Below, piece by piece: positions 28,565 to 42,424 of a DNA stretch of 64,000 nucleotides; position 1 is the first letter of the stretch, and every line of letters starts with the position of its first letter. The notes beneath the pieces are model-generated. The model saw only the letters and a list, made by a program, of their open reading frames with translations. It was not told where the DNA came from and searched no databases. A program made the translations under genes and the position numbers. Source of the DNA: a virus (taxonomy: Duplodnaviria > Caudoviricetes). The DNA is taken from IMG/VR virus record IMGVR_UViG_3300032007_000017; one strand, given 5' to 3'.

Positions 28565-29821
28565 TTATGCTATGTCTTTAAGTAAGAGTGTTTCTCTTCC
28601 CTCGGAAGTAACTAGGGGTTGTTGATATGCCAAATTCCGTAAATTATAAGCGGCATTAAGGTCTCGATCTTCTGTATATCCACAAATTGGGCATACAAAA
28701 GTTCTATAGCCATTAATATAGTAACCCTTAGATCCACAATGACTACATTGTTTTGAAGATGGAAAATATTTATTAGCAGTAATGACAGGAATATTTCTCC
28801 ACCTAGCTTTATACTTTAGCTGACGATGTATTTCACAATACATCATTTGATCATTATATGATCGTAAAGCATAATTATTGTGAAGCTGTTCATTAACAGA
28901 AATCGACTCGATTACTATTGCTTCTGGATTTCTATCAACAATTTCTTTTGTGGCTTTATTGATGTCATTTTTGCGTATATTTACCATCTTTTTAATGAGC
29001 TTAAGGCGTTTATTTTTTCGCTTATAATGATTTATAGATTTTGGCACATCCTCGTACTTGGTTCTCGTAGCGAGTCTGATCTTATTATACTTTTCATAAT
29101 CCTTACTTAATCTACGATCTAATTTTCTTCTACGTTGCTCAAGCTTTGATGTATCAGTAAATTTGTAGAATTTACCATATGAAGTTGTGATCATATTTAT
29201 AAGTCCTACATCAATACCAACAGGTTCAGTTTTTGGTTTATCTTCCATAGAAATATGTGTTTTATCATAATTTTCATATGAAGCCCCAAACCAAAAATTC
29301 AATCCATCATAATGAACTGAACAACGATAGAATTTGGTTCCTTTAGGAATTTGATGATCTTTTGCAAGTACCTTCAAATCCTTAATACCAGAAATGCTAA
29401 TATAATCTCCTATAACCCTAGTTCTATCGTGTCTAGGAGAAAAAGACCTGGATTTATATTCATTTTTTCTAGACTTAAACTTTGGGTATCTGTTTGGATT
29501 CGATTTATCAAAAAATCCTTGGAATGCTTTATCTAGATGGTCAAGGGTTTCTCTCATACATCCAACAGTTGATTCCTTAAGCCATTTATATCTAGAATCA
29601 TGATTCCGCATATTAGCAAATTTTGTTATTAGATCATAGTAGCTAATGTATGGATTTCCATCAGCATGATTATTATTTTGTATCTCAAGACCAAGATTAT
29701 AGATAGCTCTAGCCAATTGAATTTGGCGCATAAGCTGTTTTGCTTGCTCTTCTGTAGGATAGAGCTTAATTCTGACGCCTACAAGATTTTCCTCATTTAC
29801 ATTAGGTGGTTTTCGACCCAT
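28565..29821 (-). CDS. tnpB: TnpB RNA-guided nuclease
   Basis: HTH KLYPTEEQ, YPKFKSRK, RuvC-I GIDVG, RuvC-II IVIESI, Zn finger CSHC..CPIC, RuvC-III DRDLNAAYNL; RBS AAAGGAGG before ATG 29821. Confidence 0.93.
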   Translation of the reverse strand: MGRKPPNVNEENLVGVRIKLYPTEEQAKQLMRQIQLARAIYNLGLEIQNNNHADGNPYISYYDLITKFANMRNHDSRYKWLKESTVGCMRETLDHLDKAFQGFFDKSNPNRYPKFKSRKNEYKSRSFSPRHDRTRVIGDYISISGIKDLKVLAKDHQIPKGTKFYRCSVHYDGLNFWFGASYENYDKTHISMEDKPKTEPVGIDVGLINMITTSYGKFYKFTDTSKLEQRRRKLDRRLSKDYEKYNKIRLATRTKYEDVPKSINHYKRKNKRLKLIKKMVNIRKNDINKATKEIVDRNPEAIVIESISVNEQLHNNYALRSYNDQMMYCEIHRQLKYKARWRNIPVITANKYFPSSKQCSHCGSKGYYINGYRTFVCPICGYTEDRDLNAAYNLRNLAYQQPLVTSEGRETLLLKDIA

Positions 29822-30215
29822 CGAATACACCTCCTTTCTATAATGATTTACATATTAGTACGATGAATATTATTTTACAATACTTTCGAACACCTTTGTC
29901 TATATTCGCAACTTATAGACCCTTTCGGCTCATACTTTCATATGAGTGGAGATCATTTGTTCATCCTATTTCTAGGAGTCGGATTTTTCTTCCACCATAA
30001 GCTTGTGGTTCTACTCTCCCGCAAGGAGATGATCGTTGAACCTTCACCATGCTAATCGTTTAGGTGAGTGGCTGCTAAACATCCCAATCTCTATACTTTT
30101 TATATCCATCACGCTTATCGTTTCCAATTACGTTGTGGATATAGAGCTCTAAGGGATATGTCAAAGCAATTAACCCGAAGTACTTATAGATTACTCTATA
30201 AGCAGTGCGCTATAC

Positions 30216-33288: not shown

Positions 33289-33939
33289 CTAGGCCTTCTT
33301 TTCTCTTAGTTTGAACTCTGTTCCTATAAATGTTACTACTGGATCACCACGTTGAATAGAATTATGCTGAGACCAGGCATCATTAGTTGCTTTCGCTAAC
33401 TTCTCTTCATTTCTTTTCTTAATGAGAGAAATCATTCGTTCTTTAACTTTAACTAAATTTGCATGTTGGGATCTCTCTTCTGTGCAAACAACGAATTCTC
33501 CAGTAGGTTTATAGATACAGCGAATTCCAGTTTCTACCTTATTGACATTTTGTCCTCCAGGACTCCCACTATGCAAAGGTTCATAAGAAAACATTGATTC
33601 ATCAAATTCTTCTTTATTAACTTCATTGATTCCAACTCGTTGAAATGAAATAAACCAATTCTTTCTCTTATGATTCTTCCTATAAGGACTTTTACAGATC
33701 CATTGAATCGTACCAATATACTTATCGAGATCATCAGGAGTTTCGAAAATAACCGATTTCAAATCTCCAGAATTTTCTCCATCTACTTTAATAGGATCAT
33801 ATATCGGATGATTCATGACAAGATAATGAAAGAATAAACCAGCAGCACATTCACATTCTACGGGAGCATGAATTCCAGCAGAAATCTGATATTGATTGTA
33901 CTTCTTAGCATATTCTTCATCTCTATTCGTTTTTCTCAA
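33289..33939 (-). CDS. prfH: Peptide chain release factor H-like protein
   Basis: QISAG..APVEC, GTIQWICKSPYRKNHKRKNWF, SGSPGGQNVNKVETGIR, ERSQHAN; directly downstream of rtcB. Confidence 0.88.
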   Translation of the reverse strand: MRKTNRDEEYAKKYNQYQISAGIHAPVECECAAGLFFHYLVMNHPIYDPIKVDGENSGDLKSVIFETPDDLDKYIGTIQWICKSPYRKNHKRKNWFISFQRVGINEVNKEEFDESMFSYEPLHSGSPGGQNVNKVETGIRCIYKPTGEFVVCTEERSQHANLVKVKERMISLIKKRNEEKLAKATNDAWSQHNSIQRGDPVVTFIGTEFKLREKKA

Positions 33940-33942
33940 TGT

Positions 33943-35049
33943 TTATCCTCCAGCTTTGAAGTTATATACCGGTCGAATGATATTCTGAATTTCCACAGTA
34001 GGTTCAATGAGTCTCTTAATATAATCAGAATCTTTATATGCCATAGGAGATTCATCAAGAGTATTCTTTGCAACCGTAGTAGAATAAATACCTTTCATCT
34101 CAGATTTAAACTCATTCAATGTATGGTGTTGTGCAATATCAGATCGAGAATACTTACGACCGGCACCATGAGGAGCGGAGCAATTCCAATCCACATTTTC
34201 TTTGCCAACTCCAATAATGCAACCATCTCTCATATTGAGAGGAATAATCACATTATCATCCTTCCCGGCTTTAATAGCTCCCTTACGAAGAATATAATAA
34301 AGCTTTCCATCAAGATTAATATGACCGATATAATTGTGGGGTACAGAAATACACCAGTCAATGTCCCACTTCATTGCCTTGCAGATCGTATACATAATAG
34401 CATATCGATTCAGCTTAGCAAACTCTACACCAATCTCTTGATCATGTATATACATCATACGCAAAGAATCTTCGAGATAGGTGTATGGATGGGGAACTTC
34501 ATCAGACAGTGTAAGCTTATCTGCAGTATTGTGATAGTGCTCTTCAATAGCATATCCAAGAGAACGACTACCACTATGAACCACAAGATAGAAATCATCT
34601 TCTTCATCTTTATCAAGTTCGATGAAGTGATTTCCACTACCAAGAGTTCCAATAGCTCTTTTAGCCTTCTCTAAATCAATCGACTCAGCACAAGCGAGTT
34701 GTTCGAGATCGATATCATCATCAAAGGGACCACTCTTATCTCTATTCTTAGTACCAGATGGAATCAACTCCCTAACTACCTTATCAAGATGATCCATCTC
34801 AATATGCTTCTTGACTTTGATCTTTGCATAGGTCATTCCGCATCCGATATCAGGACCAATCAGTCCAGGACAAATCTTATCATTACGGATGATCATAGAG
34901 AGGCCAACAACTGATCCTTTTCCTGGATGGCAATCGGGCATAATACGAATAGTATTGCCATCAAATACAGGAGATTCGATCATTGTATTGATTGAACCAA
35001 AGGTTGATTTCTCCAAATTTTCTGCAAAGATTTTGCAATCAGCAGGCAT
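33943..35049 (-). CDS. rtcB: RtcB-family RNA ligase
   Basis: MPDCHPG, GPDIGCGM, GTLGSGNHFIE, VHSGSR, HN, RKGA, HGAGR, DESPMAYK. Confidence 0.93.
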   Translation of the reverse strand: MPADCKIFAENLEKSTFGSINTMIESPVFDGNTIRIMPDCHPGKGSVVGLSMIIRNDKICPGLIGPDIGCGMTYAKIKVKKHIEMDHLDKVVRELIPSGTKNRDKSGPFDDDIDLEQLACAESIDLEKAKRAIGTLGSGNHFIELDKDEEDDFYLVVHSGSRSLGYAIEEHYHNTADKLTLSDEVPHPYTYLEDSLRMMYIHDQEIGVEFAKLNRYAIMYTICKAMKWDIDWCISVPHNYIGHINLDGKLYYILRKGAIKAGKDDNVIIPLNMRDGCIIGVGKENVDWNCSAPHGAGRKYSRSDIAQHHTLNEFKSEMKGIYSTTVAKNTLDESPMAYKDSDYIKRLIEPTVEIQNIIRPVYNFKAGG

Positions 35050-38239: not shown

Positions 38240-38419
38240 TCCTCCCTTATTAATATGTACTTTTCAAGATAATATTCCCCAGGTATAACCTGGGGAATAT
38301 TATCAAGAGTGATGTAAGGATGGTCTTTTTACATTTACGACACTTGACACGAAAAGATATAGAATGACACACAATACCGGCTAAGCCGATTTACTTGTAT
38401 GTTTATGAGAGATATTTAT

Positions 38420-39145
38420 TTATACTTCTCTTACAACTCTACGTTCTTTATTACGAACTGTAATCGGAAGCATATAATCCTGATTAATAATATTCGTATA
38501 AATACAAGATCCTAAGAGATAATAATTCAATGTGTTTTTAGACGTAAAATCATCTTGATCAATGGGAATATCTTTCTCAGACAGAGTACCAGTAGTGGCA
38601 ATTGTTGCATAAGCAACAGACTTTGCATTCATAGCATCTGCTCTGAATGTAGATAATTCCTTCATTGTATGATCCATATTCATGGCAATTAATCCTTCCA
38701 TTTCACGGTCGGATTCTTTACCACCTTTATCATGATACACAAGAAGACCAGTCTTATAATCACGATCATTAATTCCTGTAGTAGTATGATTCTTCTTAAC
38801 GATAAACTGTTTCATTTTCTTAATATGAATTGGAACTACTACAGCTTCTTTAGATGTAATAGGCTCTCCCTTAGAGTTCTTATACATATAAGGAAGATAT
38901 ACTTTCTCAGTAAGAGGAACTCCAAGTACATCTAACCCTTCTTTGATATCTTCCATCTTAGGTTCTACTACCCAAGGTTTTACATGAAAACGAAATGGAA
39001 GAGGTCTATTACAAAATGTTTTAAATTGAGTATCACTCATTTTAGAAAACAGATTCTTATAATATGCTGTATTTGATCCAGTCTTATCAACTGCATCAAA
39101 ATATTTATAGATTAATTCTTCAGCTTTTTTACGTTGCGGAGTCAT
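38420..39145 (-). CDS. Virion RNA polymerase beta subunit, extreme C-terminal part
   Basis: PIHIKKMKQFIVKK..DYKTG..KGGKESDREMEGLIA..KELSTFRAD, a second copy of the beta C-terminal motifs distinct from the nvRNAP gene; AACA-N6-TA motif at 39162-39173. Confidence 0.8.
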   Translation of the reverse strand: MTPQRKKAEELIYKYFDAVDKTGSNTAYYKNLFSKMSDTQFKTFCNRPLPFRFHVKPWVVEPKMEDIKEGLDVLGVPLTEKVYLPYMYKNSKGEPITSKEAVVVPIHIKKMKQFIVKKNHTTTGINDRDYKTGLLVYHDKGGKESDREMEGLIAMNMDHTMKELSTFRADAMNAKSVAYATIATTGTLSEKDIPIDQDDFTSKNTLNYYLLGSCIYTNIINQDYMLPITVRNKERRVVREV

Positions 39146-39172
39146 TTAATCACTCTCCTTTTAATAAAGTGT

Positions 39173-39790
39173 TGATGATCACAGGGTTTTACCCCTGTGA
39201 TCATCATTGCAAGAAGAGACGTGGATGCTTGATAAAAGCAACAGGATATAAGAAATCAATCTAACCCTAATAAATTGTTTATTCTTTAAAAATAAAAATA
39301 AAGGTGATTAGAGGGGAAAGATTCCCCTCTAATCTATAGAAGATTGTGAAGACATGATGATCAAGCAATTAACAACGTCTTTTCTTGCATTTTCATAAGA
39401 TTAAACTCCTATATTCATTAAAGCGATAGACTCGCTAAAGTCTTAGTTTTACTTATGATAAAACGAGTATCGCTTAGATCATCCTAATAAAATGTTAAAG
39501 ATAGGGAGCATAGAGCTCCCTATCTTTATGCCTTTGTTATACCTGTTAGAAAAAGCAAATGATACACTTTTAAACAGAAGATAGACGAATTGGAAATCCT
39601 AGACGATGTTTTGCCTTTGTTGCCGAGAAGAATTACTTGGTAGCATATGATACTTTCGTTTTACCAGTGGGGCGATGATATGATTACATAAACTCTATAG
39701 AATTCTAATTATATTTTCTTTTATAAGCGATAACTTCGCTAAAGGTTAATTAGATTATATAGAAGGTATCATATCATTTTTTCAAATTCC
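39173..39790 (-). ncRNA. Three tandem candidate structured ncRNAs with mutual complementarity
   Basis: Promoter motifs at 39268-39279 and 39485-39496; hairpins at 39173-39206, 39306-39334 and 39496-39528; shared CTTTAGCGA-N5-TCGCTT motif; no ORFs. Confidence 0.5.
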
Positions 39791-39794
39791 TGTG

Positions 39795-40860
39795 TTCTAA
39801 GTACTTAAGGGGAAATGATTAAGTACTTAAGAGTGGGGAAACACTCTGCTCGCAATTACGGACCACAACATATTGTGCATCATTCTACACTATATTGAGT
39901 GGATTATTCATTTATCTCTTCAGATTAAATATTTTTTATTTGAACTACTATATACCAACATTACAATATTCAATTTTTGAAAGTTTCTACAGTTGGCGTT
40001 GTACAAACACATTAGCTAGAGAAGTTAACAAATTCATACACTTAGTAGCACAGGTTTTTTTGTATATAGGAGTTCTTTATATTATAGAGAGTAAATTCTC
40101 TTTATTTAATTATAGAGATAGAAGTTTACCGCTCTCAATATAAATATAGACTGATTTACTAATATGTTTTTGACAGATATATTTATATAATTTTTATAAG
40201 AAATTCATAGAACTAAAAATCTAAAGAGACTAGAGCGTTAGCTCTAGTCTCTGATTTTAATTAATTGAATTATTCTCTTTCTTATGATTTGTTCTAGGTT
40301 CTTTTCCCATATATATTTAAAGTTATTTACCTGGAGAACGCCGAGAACCCGCCCTTATTCGGGTTCTCCGCCATAACTTAAATAAAAAGAACGTCTTACG
40401 ACGAATTTAGATTAAAATAGGAAGGTCAAATTTTCTCAAAAATTTCGAAAAATTGGCAAAAAATAAACCCCGTAGCCTCAGCTACGGACAAAAAAATATA
40501 CCCATGTTTAGATTAAACATGGTTAAATAAATTAAGTTAATTTAGATAAACTTAAATGAAATTTATTAAACTTAAGATATAGATTTAATAAACTTTTTTG
40601 AAATGTATAAACATTTCATGTTTATATTATGTGTTTATTTTCAAGTTTACTCAGGTAATTTTTCAGAAAAATATATTTTCTATTGCCCCATGTATCCTTT
40701 TTCTTTTTTTTATTATATATAATTTATTTATATATAATTTATATATATTTAATTTATTTATTTTATTTAATTTATATATATTATATTTATTTTCCTTCCT
40801 TCTTCCAAGCCCCCTTTATTAGTAATTTTGTTAGTTTTGTAAAAAATTATTTTACATTTT
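39795..40860. other. Long AT-rich non-coding region, candidate replication origin
   Basis: Nearly pure A/T at ~40700-40790, several palindromes, AAGTACTTAAG x2. Confidence 0.35.
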
Positions 40861-41161
40861 CGGATTTATAGAGAGGGGAAGCAACCCCCTCTCTATAAAC
40901 AGCCAAAAGAAAAGGAAACAAGAGATGGAATAAGAAAGAATGATTCATATGAGTAATTTATTGTTAGTGAATTATGAAAAATTACTCAAAAGCCAAATGC
41001 TGAATATAATTCCAAATATTCCAACTGGTGGTAAAAATGGAAGCCAGAAAAAGATACTAGATAGCAATGTAATTATTCCTATAAGTTTAATCATGATAAT
41101 AGCCTCCTTTAATGTATTGGTCATTTTAATAATATGTAGATGAGTGGGAATTTAATCCCAC

Positions 41162-42424
41162 TCATCTATTAGCATTATGGATAGACAATGCGAAATACAT
41201 CTTGATTGCTCTTTCAAAAGAATTCTTAGTAGCAAGACGAGATCTTCTACGGATATATGCAGGAGAATTCTCAGAAAGTAAAGATTCAATCAACTCCTGA
41301 GTCTTCTTTAACTCAGGTTGTTTGGCATTTGGTTTTGGAGAGATCGTATAAGTAATAAACTTAGGATTTCTCACATCTTTATCCTTACTATCGCTATAAT
41401 TACAATATGCCGTAATCATAAGCATAACAAGCTCTCTGATCTTGATAGTACTTCTAGGATCACCAAAGAGAGATTCCATAATAGACTTCATCTCTTTTGT
41501 AGTGATATTAGAATCTGAACAAGCTCTACAGATAGCATAGTCAACACCAGAACTCAGCATGTAATTGACTGCTTTCTCTGTCATTTTCTGAATTCGTAAA
41601 GAATCTGAATCAGCAAGTCTATAACTATCTTCTTCAACAGAATCAGAGTTATAGTTCATATATAACTGATCTCTCTTCTCCCAATTCTTATAATACTCAT
41701 TTGCAATATTACGAAGGAAGGAACGAAGACGAGATTGAAGCTGGTTAATCATGATATAAACCACATCTTCATCAGTAAAGCTTTTAAGATTCTTTGAATA
41801 TGTAGTATACCAAACATTTGAAATCTTTCTGACAGCTCCAATAACAGATCCTTCAGAAACAATATCAAACTTAGTATTCAGAGAATTATTGACGGTATAC
41901 TCCATAATATGTCTTGCAGGAAGTACTACTTTCCATTGATTATAGTGAATAGAAGGATAGAATTTACCAGAGAATGCAAGATGAATACAAGCAAGCTCTG
42001 CTTCTTTCTGCATTTTCTTGAGATAGAAATAACGAATGACACACATCATCGTTACTGTAAATTCATCTTTAGCAGCTAGAGGAGAGAAATGAGGTTCATT
42101 ACCATAATAGGTCTTTTGAATACACTCTGTTACAAAGCTCTTATCAATATCAAGAGCTTGAAAGAGTGCATTTGCATCATCTTCTCCAAAGACAATTCTA
42201 GCGCAAGGAAGTGTATCATAAAGATCATCTGATCTCTTTTGAATAAAATTAGATACAAGTTGCTTATACTTTTGCTTACCATTAGGTCTATCGAGCTGTT
42301 TCTCTACTAATGGATAGAGTTTGTCTCTAAAGACTGTAGTATCTGCATCAATCTTATAAGCAACTTCATTGAGAGGACTAAGAGACATAAACATAGTCTC
42401 TAATAATACATTATTAGGCATCAT
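41162..42424 (-). CDS. Hypothetical protein (420 aa)
   Basis: AACA-N6-TA motif at 42434-42445; RBS GAGGTG. Confidence 0.7.
   Translation of the reverse strand: MMPNNVLLETMFMSLSPLNEVAYKIDADTTVFRDKLYPLVEKQLDRPNGKQKYKQLVSNFIQKRSDDLYDTLPCARIVFGEDDANALFQALDIDKSFVTECIQKTYYGNEPHFSPLAAKDEFTVTMMCVIRYFYLKKMQKEAELACIHLAFSGKFYPSIHYNQWKVVLPARHIMEYTVNNSLNTKFDIVSEGSVIGAVRKISNVWYTTYSKNLKSFTDEDVVYIMINQLQSRLRSFLRNIANEYYKNWEKRDQLYMNYNSDSVEEDSYRLADSDSLRIQKMTEKAVNYMLSSGVDYAICRACSDSNITTKEMKSIMESLFGDPRSTIKIRELVMLMITAYCNYSDSKDKDVRNPKFITYTISPKPNAKQPELKKTQELIESLLSENSPAYIRRRSRLATKNSFERAIKMYFALSIHNANR

Follow-up and report, generated by a model that had tools for sequence, protein, structure and literature searches.

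Co-evolving complementarity between two candidate late small RNAs beside a virion RNA polymerase gene of an AR9/PBS1-like jumbo phage

A question raised by this locus is what occupies a gap of about 2 kb, poor in ORFs, that lies immediately upstream of a gene for a virion RNA polymerase (RNAP) subunit. The window (the whole stretch of DNA that was analyzed, 64,000 nt) belongs, as judged from its sequence, to an uncultured AR9/PBS1-like jumbo phage. The gene (38420-39145, minus strand) encodes a 241-aa product that matches phrog_3233 (RNA polymerase beta subunit; E = 1.6e-29), and tblastn matched it to AR9, PBS1, Goe21 and jumbo phages of Staphylococcus, Listeria and Fusobacterium at 25-38% identity. 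Its homologue in AR9 is gp077, a late gene that is annotated as a virion RNAP subunit and whose late promoter, P077, has been mapped. The neighborhood of the gene includes a PhuZ-like tubulin, topoisomerase II, RtcB and an RF-1-domain protein. The RtcB RNA ligase gene (33943-35049) adjoins the gene for the RF-1-domain, PrfH-like protein (33289-33939), both on the minus strand, and farther along the same strand is a 421-aa ORF (28565-29830) with the hallmarks of TnpB, namely a Cas12f1-like TNB domain, OrfB_IS605 and an HTH.

The gap spans 39146-41161, and the only ORF of at least 40 aa on the gene strand encodes a 50-aa, membrane-like hydrophobic peptide (40972-41124, minus strand), which has a strong ribosome-binding site (RBS) and is the only plausible coding frame in the gap. 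The rest is made up of ORF-less hairpin units, one after another; one of them consists of a promoter-like box (40965-40954), about 60 CU-rich nucleotides and a hairpin (~40897-40866). An AT-rich repeat block lies at 40700-40790, and distant relatives have tandem repeats in the equivalent place (18 nt x5 in L003, 5125-5205, and 17 nt x8 in L005, 5275-5390); the region could be origin-like or iteron-bearing, or could hold early promoters. The three units closest to the RNAP gene are the subject of this report, and we address here whether they act as RNAs and, if so, with which partner.

Promoter-to-terminator units upstream of the RNA polymerase gene

An earlier note on this DNA had described three adjacent non-coding units on the minus strand, each running from a promoter motif to a strong hairpin, and this architecture was confirmed, including the observation that the box of unit 3 is only a degenerate one. 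The features are listed below in the direction of the gene, with L019 denoting the closest relative, in which the RNAP-fragment protein is 99% identical.

39785-39796, minus strand: P3, degenerate late-promoter-like box AACACAGGAATT (AACA-N6-TT; 39796-39785 as read), presumed unit 3 start at 39785; same in L019
39496-39785, minus strand: unit 3, ~290 nt; 5' nested-stem domain with a UUUAGCGA-N5-UCGCUU hairpin (39743-39725), ending in T3
39528-39496, minus strand: T3, hairpin that ends unit 3
39485-39496, minus strand: P2, exact box AACATTTTATTA, predicted transcription start A39485
39300-39485, minus strand: unit 2 (u2), ~186 nt; 5' nested-stem domain with a UUUAGCGA-N5-UCGCUU hairpin (39439-39421), then arms H1 and H2, then T2
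39389-39375, minus strand: H1, arm of u2, partner of H1' of u1
39367-39360, minus strand: H2, arm of u2, partner of H2' of u1
39334-39306, minus strand: T2, hairpin that ends unit 2
39268-39279, minus strand: P1, exact box AACAATTTATTA, predicted transcription start A39268
39165-39268, minus strand: unit 1 (u1), ~100 nt; 5' hairpin, arm H2', arm H1', then T1
39233-39226, minus strand: H2', arm of u1, partner of H2 of u2
39222-39208, minus strand: H1', arm of u1, ACGUCUCUUCUUGCA, a pyrimidine-rich seed that is unpaired in the fold of u1 itself
39206-39173, minus strand: T1, hairpin that ends unit 1
39162-39173, minus strand: P0, exact box AACACTTTATTA, overlapping the last base of T1, 17 nt before the RNAP-gene ATG at 39145
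38420-39145, minus strand: gene for the N-terminal fragment of the virion RNAP beta subunit

The boxes correspond to AACA-N6-TA/G, the experimentally mapped late-promoter consensus of AR9, in which the last base is the transcription start (PMC5312081). Twelve of the 41 copies of AACA-N6-TA in the window lie 5-80 nt before an ORF start, compared with 2.3 +/- 1.4 expected for random placement, and thus the motif behaves as a promoter in this genome. P3, which ends in TT, is off the consensus. P0 is a third exact box that abuts T1 and was missing from the series in the earlier note; with an RBS, AAGGAGAG, at 39160-39153 between it and the ATG, P0 is the predicted promoter of the RNAP-fragment gene itself. 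Each of the hairpins T3, T2 and T1 is followed by AACANTTTATTA, which belongs to P2, P1 and P0, respectively. All three hairpins are GC-rich, have stems of 13-14 bp and pass a terminator scan, which found 11 terminator-like sites in 2.5 kb where 0.8 were expected.

Each unit is predicted to fold more stably than shuffled sequences (unit 3, -68.1 kcal/mol, z = -4.4; unit 2, -53.6 kcal/mol, z = -5.2; unit 1, -34.4 kcal/mol, z = -5.2). As had been noted, the predicted folds of units 2 and 3 turn their 5' ends back, and both form a 5' domain of ~100-130 nt that is closed by an AUGAU.../...AUCAU helix around the common hairpin. Copies of UUUAGCGA-N5-UCGCUU lie at 39439-39421 and 39743-39725, and the window holds three matches with at most two mismatches where 0.32 are expected, so this shared element also stood up. 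Units 2 and 3 look like paralogues, unit 3 resembling a diverged copy of the 5' domain of unit 2. One further copy of the UUUAGCGA-type hairpin is present in the relative L031 (1857-1874). The loop of the hairpin (UUUAGCGA-N5-UCGCU) varies yet stays complementary to four nucleotides upstream (AGAC/GUCU in unit 2, UAAC/GUUA in unit 3), which fits a compact pseudoknot, with three copies only to compare. Directly upstream of P3, at 39797-39830 on the minus strand, are a palindrome, TTAAGTACTTAA, and a second copy, TTAAGTACTTAG, each following TTCCCC; both are unchanged in L019 and may be a protein-binding site.

Evidence for a coding function was lacking, as no ORFs were found in the gaps that hold these units in the window and none were called there in relatives. 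The only ORF below the pairing site is an 11-aa frame in unit 2 (MKMQEKTLLIA), for which a coding role was rejected because its AGGAG RBS is weakened and one residue is changed in L019. A type I toxin-antitoxin module was likewise rejected, since there is no small hydrophobic toxin ORF and the sole candidate is this same frame with its unconserved RBS. The statement that the units belong to no recognizable RNA class also held. Rfam covariance models at gathering thresholds (including ROOL, GOLLD, RNase P, 6S, C4 and riboswitches) gave no match in the whole window; at permissive thresholds the top-scoring family over 38900-41400, NsiR8, reached only 25.6 of the 61 bits that its threshold requires; and ARAGORN predicted no tRNA or tmRNA genes, two-piece tmRNA included, in the window.

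Pairing between units 1 and 2 and its conservation among relatives

Hundreds of relatives of the RNAP fragment are present in metagenomes, and a gap of 1-2.5 kb without genes lies upstream of the gene in every relative that was examined. The spacers were sorted into lineages: the window with L019; L007, L023, L024 and L025; L037; L021 and L022; L028 and L029; L030; L020; L026; and more distant loci. Lineages whose proteins are ~80% identical share little or no spacer sequence detectable by BLAST, and the gap DNA of the window matched neither known phages nor relatives with 57-64% protein identity. The layout T3-P2-u2-T2-P1-u1-T1-P0-gene nevertheless recurs in eight lineages, with hairpins near -60, -180 and -380 from the ATG. 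An AAC[AT]-N6-T[AT] box follows both T2 and T1 in all eight, 0-27 nt away (4-27 nt after T2), against a background of ~0.10 per 30-nt window. The motifs of the relatives are mostly AACT-N6-TA, and their use as late promoters is assumed.

Against this background of sequence turnover, the complementarity between units 1 and 2 is of particular interest. H1' and H1 pair at 14 of 15 positions and H2' and H2 at all eight, as had been reported in the earlier note, and the two helices are separated by asymmetric bulges of 3 and 7 nt. The single mismatch, an A.C on the transcribed strand, is repaired in L019, where 39381 A>G converts it to G-C and completes the H1 helix (15/15). The gain in free energy upon co-folding u2 with u1 is -12.2 kcal/mol in the window and -18.1 kcal/mol in L019.

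To compare cognate pairs with cross-lineage controls, u2 and u1 of the eight lineages were co-folded in all 64 combinations. RNAduplex and a loose Smith-Waterman complementarity score were dropped in favor of co-folding gains, as AT-rich, low-complexity pairing dominated them and they did not discriminate. In five of the eight lineages the cognate pair showed a clear gain (-12.2, -12.9, -19.2, -14.0 and -11.5 kcal/mol), and each of these values is the best in its own row and column of the matrix. The cognate gains sum to -77.9, compared with -35.7 +/- 5.5 for deranged pairings (minimum, -53.9), and none of 7,390 derangements reached the cognate sum. There was no net gain in the other three lineages, L020, L026 and L030 (in L030 unit 1 folds on itself), so the pairing is not a universal feature of these spacers.

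The helices themselves point in the same direction. A core in which GGRUAGAR of u2 pairs with YUCUAYCC of u1 is found in L007, L037, L021, L028 and L030, and within it G-C is replaced by A-U at two positions and by one G.U in L030. The core is extended on different sides in different lineages, and second and third helices vary in sequence from lineage to lineage while their complementarity stays. The covariation that the earlier note had proposed looking for in relatives is therefore present for the core that joins units 1 and 2; the arm said to join units 1 and 3 fared differently, as described below. The repair in L019, the cross-lineage controls and the covariation together argue that the pairing of units 1 and 2 has been selected, and a pairing that co-evolved among relatives in this way probably reflects a real RNA-RNA partnership.

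Substitutions between the window and L019 provide an additional view of constraint. The RNAP-fragment gene differs at 19 synonymous and 2 non-synonymous positions. Units 1 and 2 together carry 9 differences in 324 nt, compared with 19 in ~174 synonymous sites (p = 3e-4), a rate four times lower, and by this comparison they are under purifying selection. Eight of the nine lie in hairpin loops or improve a pair, and the ninth is in a stretch predicted to be unpaired: three are in the loop of T2, three are in the loop of the 5' hairpin of unit 1, which they tighten, one is the repair of H1 at 39381, and one (39409 G>A) turns a G.U into an A-U pair in a local hairpin of unit 2. Unit 3, with 20 differences in 289 nt, does not differ from the synonymous rate.

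Between the RNAP-fragment gene and the next gene is a 180-nt spacer that is 100% identical in L019 (0 differences; p = 8e-7). It contains what may be called unit 0 (38240-38419, minus strand), in which the late box AACATACAAGTA (38403-38392) is accompanied by a 5' hairpin, a stretch of ~110 nt and a hairpin of the terminator type (~38316-38280). Blocks of unit 0 such as GUCAUAAUGUGAAUUCCUUUC are kept in the spacers of L024, L037, L021, L028, L020, L026 and L036, are more diverged in L030 and L031 and were not seen in L032. The GUCAUAAUGUGAAUUCCUUUC block looks complementary to RBSs of the GAAAGGAG type.

It might be argued that the units upstream of the gene have no function as RNA, and that they are leftover promoter and terminator cassettes in fast-evolving DNA whose complementarity is accidental. 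The lack of spacer conservation between lineages with ~80% identical flanking protein and the absence of the pairing from three lineages speak for this view. We nonetheless regard this view as very improbable, given that no derangement matched the cognate pairs, that L019 repairs the mismatch, that units 1 and 2 differ from L019 at a quarter of the synonymous rate, and that the gap is kept free of ORFs over 1-2.5 kb in every relative examined.

The same data bear on the proposal that unit 1 bridges units 2 and 3 in a three-piece structured RNA, or that all three are parts of one RNA of ~600 nt. The sequence match between unit 1 and unit 3 on which the bridge was based does exist (39255-39240 with 39547-39533, 14 bp with one bulge), and units 2 and 3 have the hairpin motif in common. 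The match performs no better than non-cognate controls, however: in the window the cognate u3:u1 pair gains -4.5 kcal/mol, and over six lineages the range is -3.2 to -7.7, compared with a non-cognate mean of -5.6 +/- 2.5; cognate u3:u1 and u3:u2 gains taken together (-2.2 to -10.5 kcal/mol) do not stand out from the non-cognate values. The unit 1 arm is changed in L019 at 39252, 39251 and 39249 without compensation in unit 3, and unit 3 diverges at about the synonymous rate. The bridge thus found no support, and a single ~600-nt RNA is unlikely because a promoter box follows both T2 and T1 in all eight lineages; in either form the proposal now seems scarcely tenable.

Separate RNAs, a read-through leader or a DNA element

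If the pairing of units 1 and 2 is real, how is it used? We tentatively favor, as a reading that approaches an even chance, that units 1 and 2 give rise to separate late small RNAs, which pair in trans, one a regulator and the other its partner or sponge. Both would be transcribed late in infection by the non-virion RNAP of the phage from the AACA-N6-TA promoters, and each transcript would stop at its intrinsic-terminator hairpin. Unit 1 would then be organized as base-pairing small RNAs usually are, its 5' hairpin leading into an unpaired, pyrimidine-rich seed and then the terminator, and in unit 2 the purine-rich complement would follow the structured 5' domain. We infer that the two RNAs would meet in trans and anneal over 22-24 bp in two helices, a duplex long enough to be a substrate of RNase III, and therefore that each would titrate or reshape the other. 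Possible outcomes are mutual titration, cleavage by RNase III or an effect on T1, and the downstream consequence might be read-through of T1 into the virion-RNAP gene or an effect on a target elsewhere. Unit 3 is predicted to have no part in the pairing.

A less likely possibility, although one to be taken seriously, is that T2 is leaky or merely structural, such that u2 and u1 reside on a single read-through leader of ~330 nt in which H1 and H2 form a long-range helix around T2. Such a helix could serve as an RNase III-type processing site, or as an insulator or attenuator before the virion-RNAP gene. When the 420 nt are folded as one continuous RNA, the minimum-energy structure contains precisely this helix in the window, L019, L007 and L021; pairing within one molecule would be favored kinetically; and the 3' arm adjoins T1 in the window, L021 and L030. 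Read-through of T2 is plausible, moreover, in view of its U-tract, which is only moderate in the window (as is that after T1) and poor in L028. On the other hand, T2 is a GC-rich hairpin of 13-19 bp across lineages, followed by U-runs in most of them, all eight lineages keep a promoter box between T2 and the 3' arm, where it would have no role in a single RNA, and the RNAP gene has its own promoter after T1.

The arms might instead function at the level of DNA, as recombination sites of an invertible promoter segment or as paired regulator-binding sites that flank T2 and P1. Repeats of 10-23 bp do flank a segment of ~135-190 bp that carries a promoter box, and arms that are half-sites for one protein would also be expected to co-vary. 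This explanation is less likely because asymmetric bulges (those of 3 and 7 nt in the window) break the arms up into several helices, because they include G.U pairs in L021 and L030, and because all 13 contigs of the six repeat-bearing lineages have the segment in one orientation; the hairpins and promoter boxes are strand-specific as well. We consider it quite improbable.

For the favored pair of small RNAs, a target beyond the pair itself was sought within the phage. Among 15-mers with at most three mismatches, the unit 1 seed has a match only in unit 2 in the 64 kb window, and no mRNA target appeared; translation-initiation regions of nearby genes gave no cognate advantage as targets of the seed. 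The complement of the seed (GGGUAGAA/GGGTAGAA) is found again at the RBS of the gene that follows the RNAP gene, immediately 5' of AGGAG, in L007 (4892), L024 (3392) and L037 (2728), and this is only a lead because it is not seen in other lineages.

One may also imagine a more specific role, which we judge unlikely as it stands: that units 1 and 2 together make an RNA-RNA switch that co-evolves and is specific to its lineage, with the logic of c4 RNA but built from two autonomous late small RNA genes. Annealing of unit 2 beside T1 would set the level of late transcription into the virion RNAP gene, or the pair might allow closely related jumbo phages to distinguish their own regulator from one belonging to a co-infecting relative.

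Known small RNAs and jumbo phage biology

The c4 antisense RNA of phages P1 and P7 is encoded near its target and on the same strand. Units 1 and 2 resemble this system in that arrangement, in being phage small RNAs with short complementary segments and a nearby same-strand target, and in that regulator and target co-vary between related phages (PMC12197685). Whereas c4 RNA is cut from a longer transcript and pairs around the RBS of its target mRNA, the target segment of unit 1 is in a second ORF-less unit, at least 40 nt upstream of the RBS and behind a hairpin and a promoter. Control of the c4 type was rejected: the u1 arms (39233-39208) lie at least 48 nt upstream of the RBS at 39160-39153 and are separated from it by T1 and P0. 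No match to the Rfam C4 model was obtained at the locus.

A second parallel is offered by AgvB and AsxR, small RNAs of prophages in E. coli O157 that bind another small RNA and neutralize it by target mimicry, and that have the same order of promoter, seed and terminator (PMC12197685). AgvB and AsxR act on small RNAs of the host and depend on Hfq, whereas units 1 and 2 are both phage genes, side by side and behind late promoters of a phage RNAP. In genomic style the nearer comparison is with jumbo phage 201phi2-1, which produces 11 small RNAs, eight of them through termination in 5' UTRs (PMC11512511). The 5'-UTR and intergenic small RNAs of 201phi2-1 and phiKZ are, like units 1 and 2, short promoter-to-terminator units upstream of structural or virion genes in giant phages that have their own RNAPs (PMC11512511). 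They belong to another phage clade with other promoter motifs, no pairing between neighboring small RNAs has been reported for them, and they have no sequence or Rfam relationship to units 1 and 2. None of the tests for membership placed units 1 and 2 in a named family.

The Campylobacter jejuni small RNAs CJnc190 and CJnc180 are encoded on opposite strands. They are reported to be a small RNA and its antagonist that form an extended duplex, as is proposed for units 1 and 2, and in the CJnc pair there is processing by RNase III (PMC8687705). CJnc190 and CJnc180 are described as cis-encoded (PMC8687705), which differs from the tandem order of units 1 and 2 on one strand. By analogy, then, the logic of units 1 and 2 resembles that of c4 RNA and of sponge or anti-sRNA pairs, and their genomic style resembles that of the 5'-UTR small RNAs of 201phi2-1. 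What this locus adds is the co-evolving pairing between neighboring units.

In giant phages that have their own RNAPs, the timing of gene expression is thought to be governed mainly through classes of promoters, and to our knowledge control at the level of RNA is almost unexplored in them. If compensatory change maintains the complementarity of two adjacent late small RNAs across uncultured lineages, RNA-RNA regulation in these phages would have a concrete and testable case, and this pair adjoins the gene for a polymerase that must be packaged into virions. The long, seemingly empty gaps in the genomes of these phages are, as sequence comparison demonstrates here, under selection.
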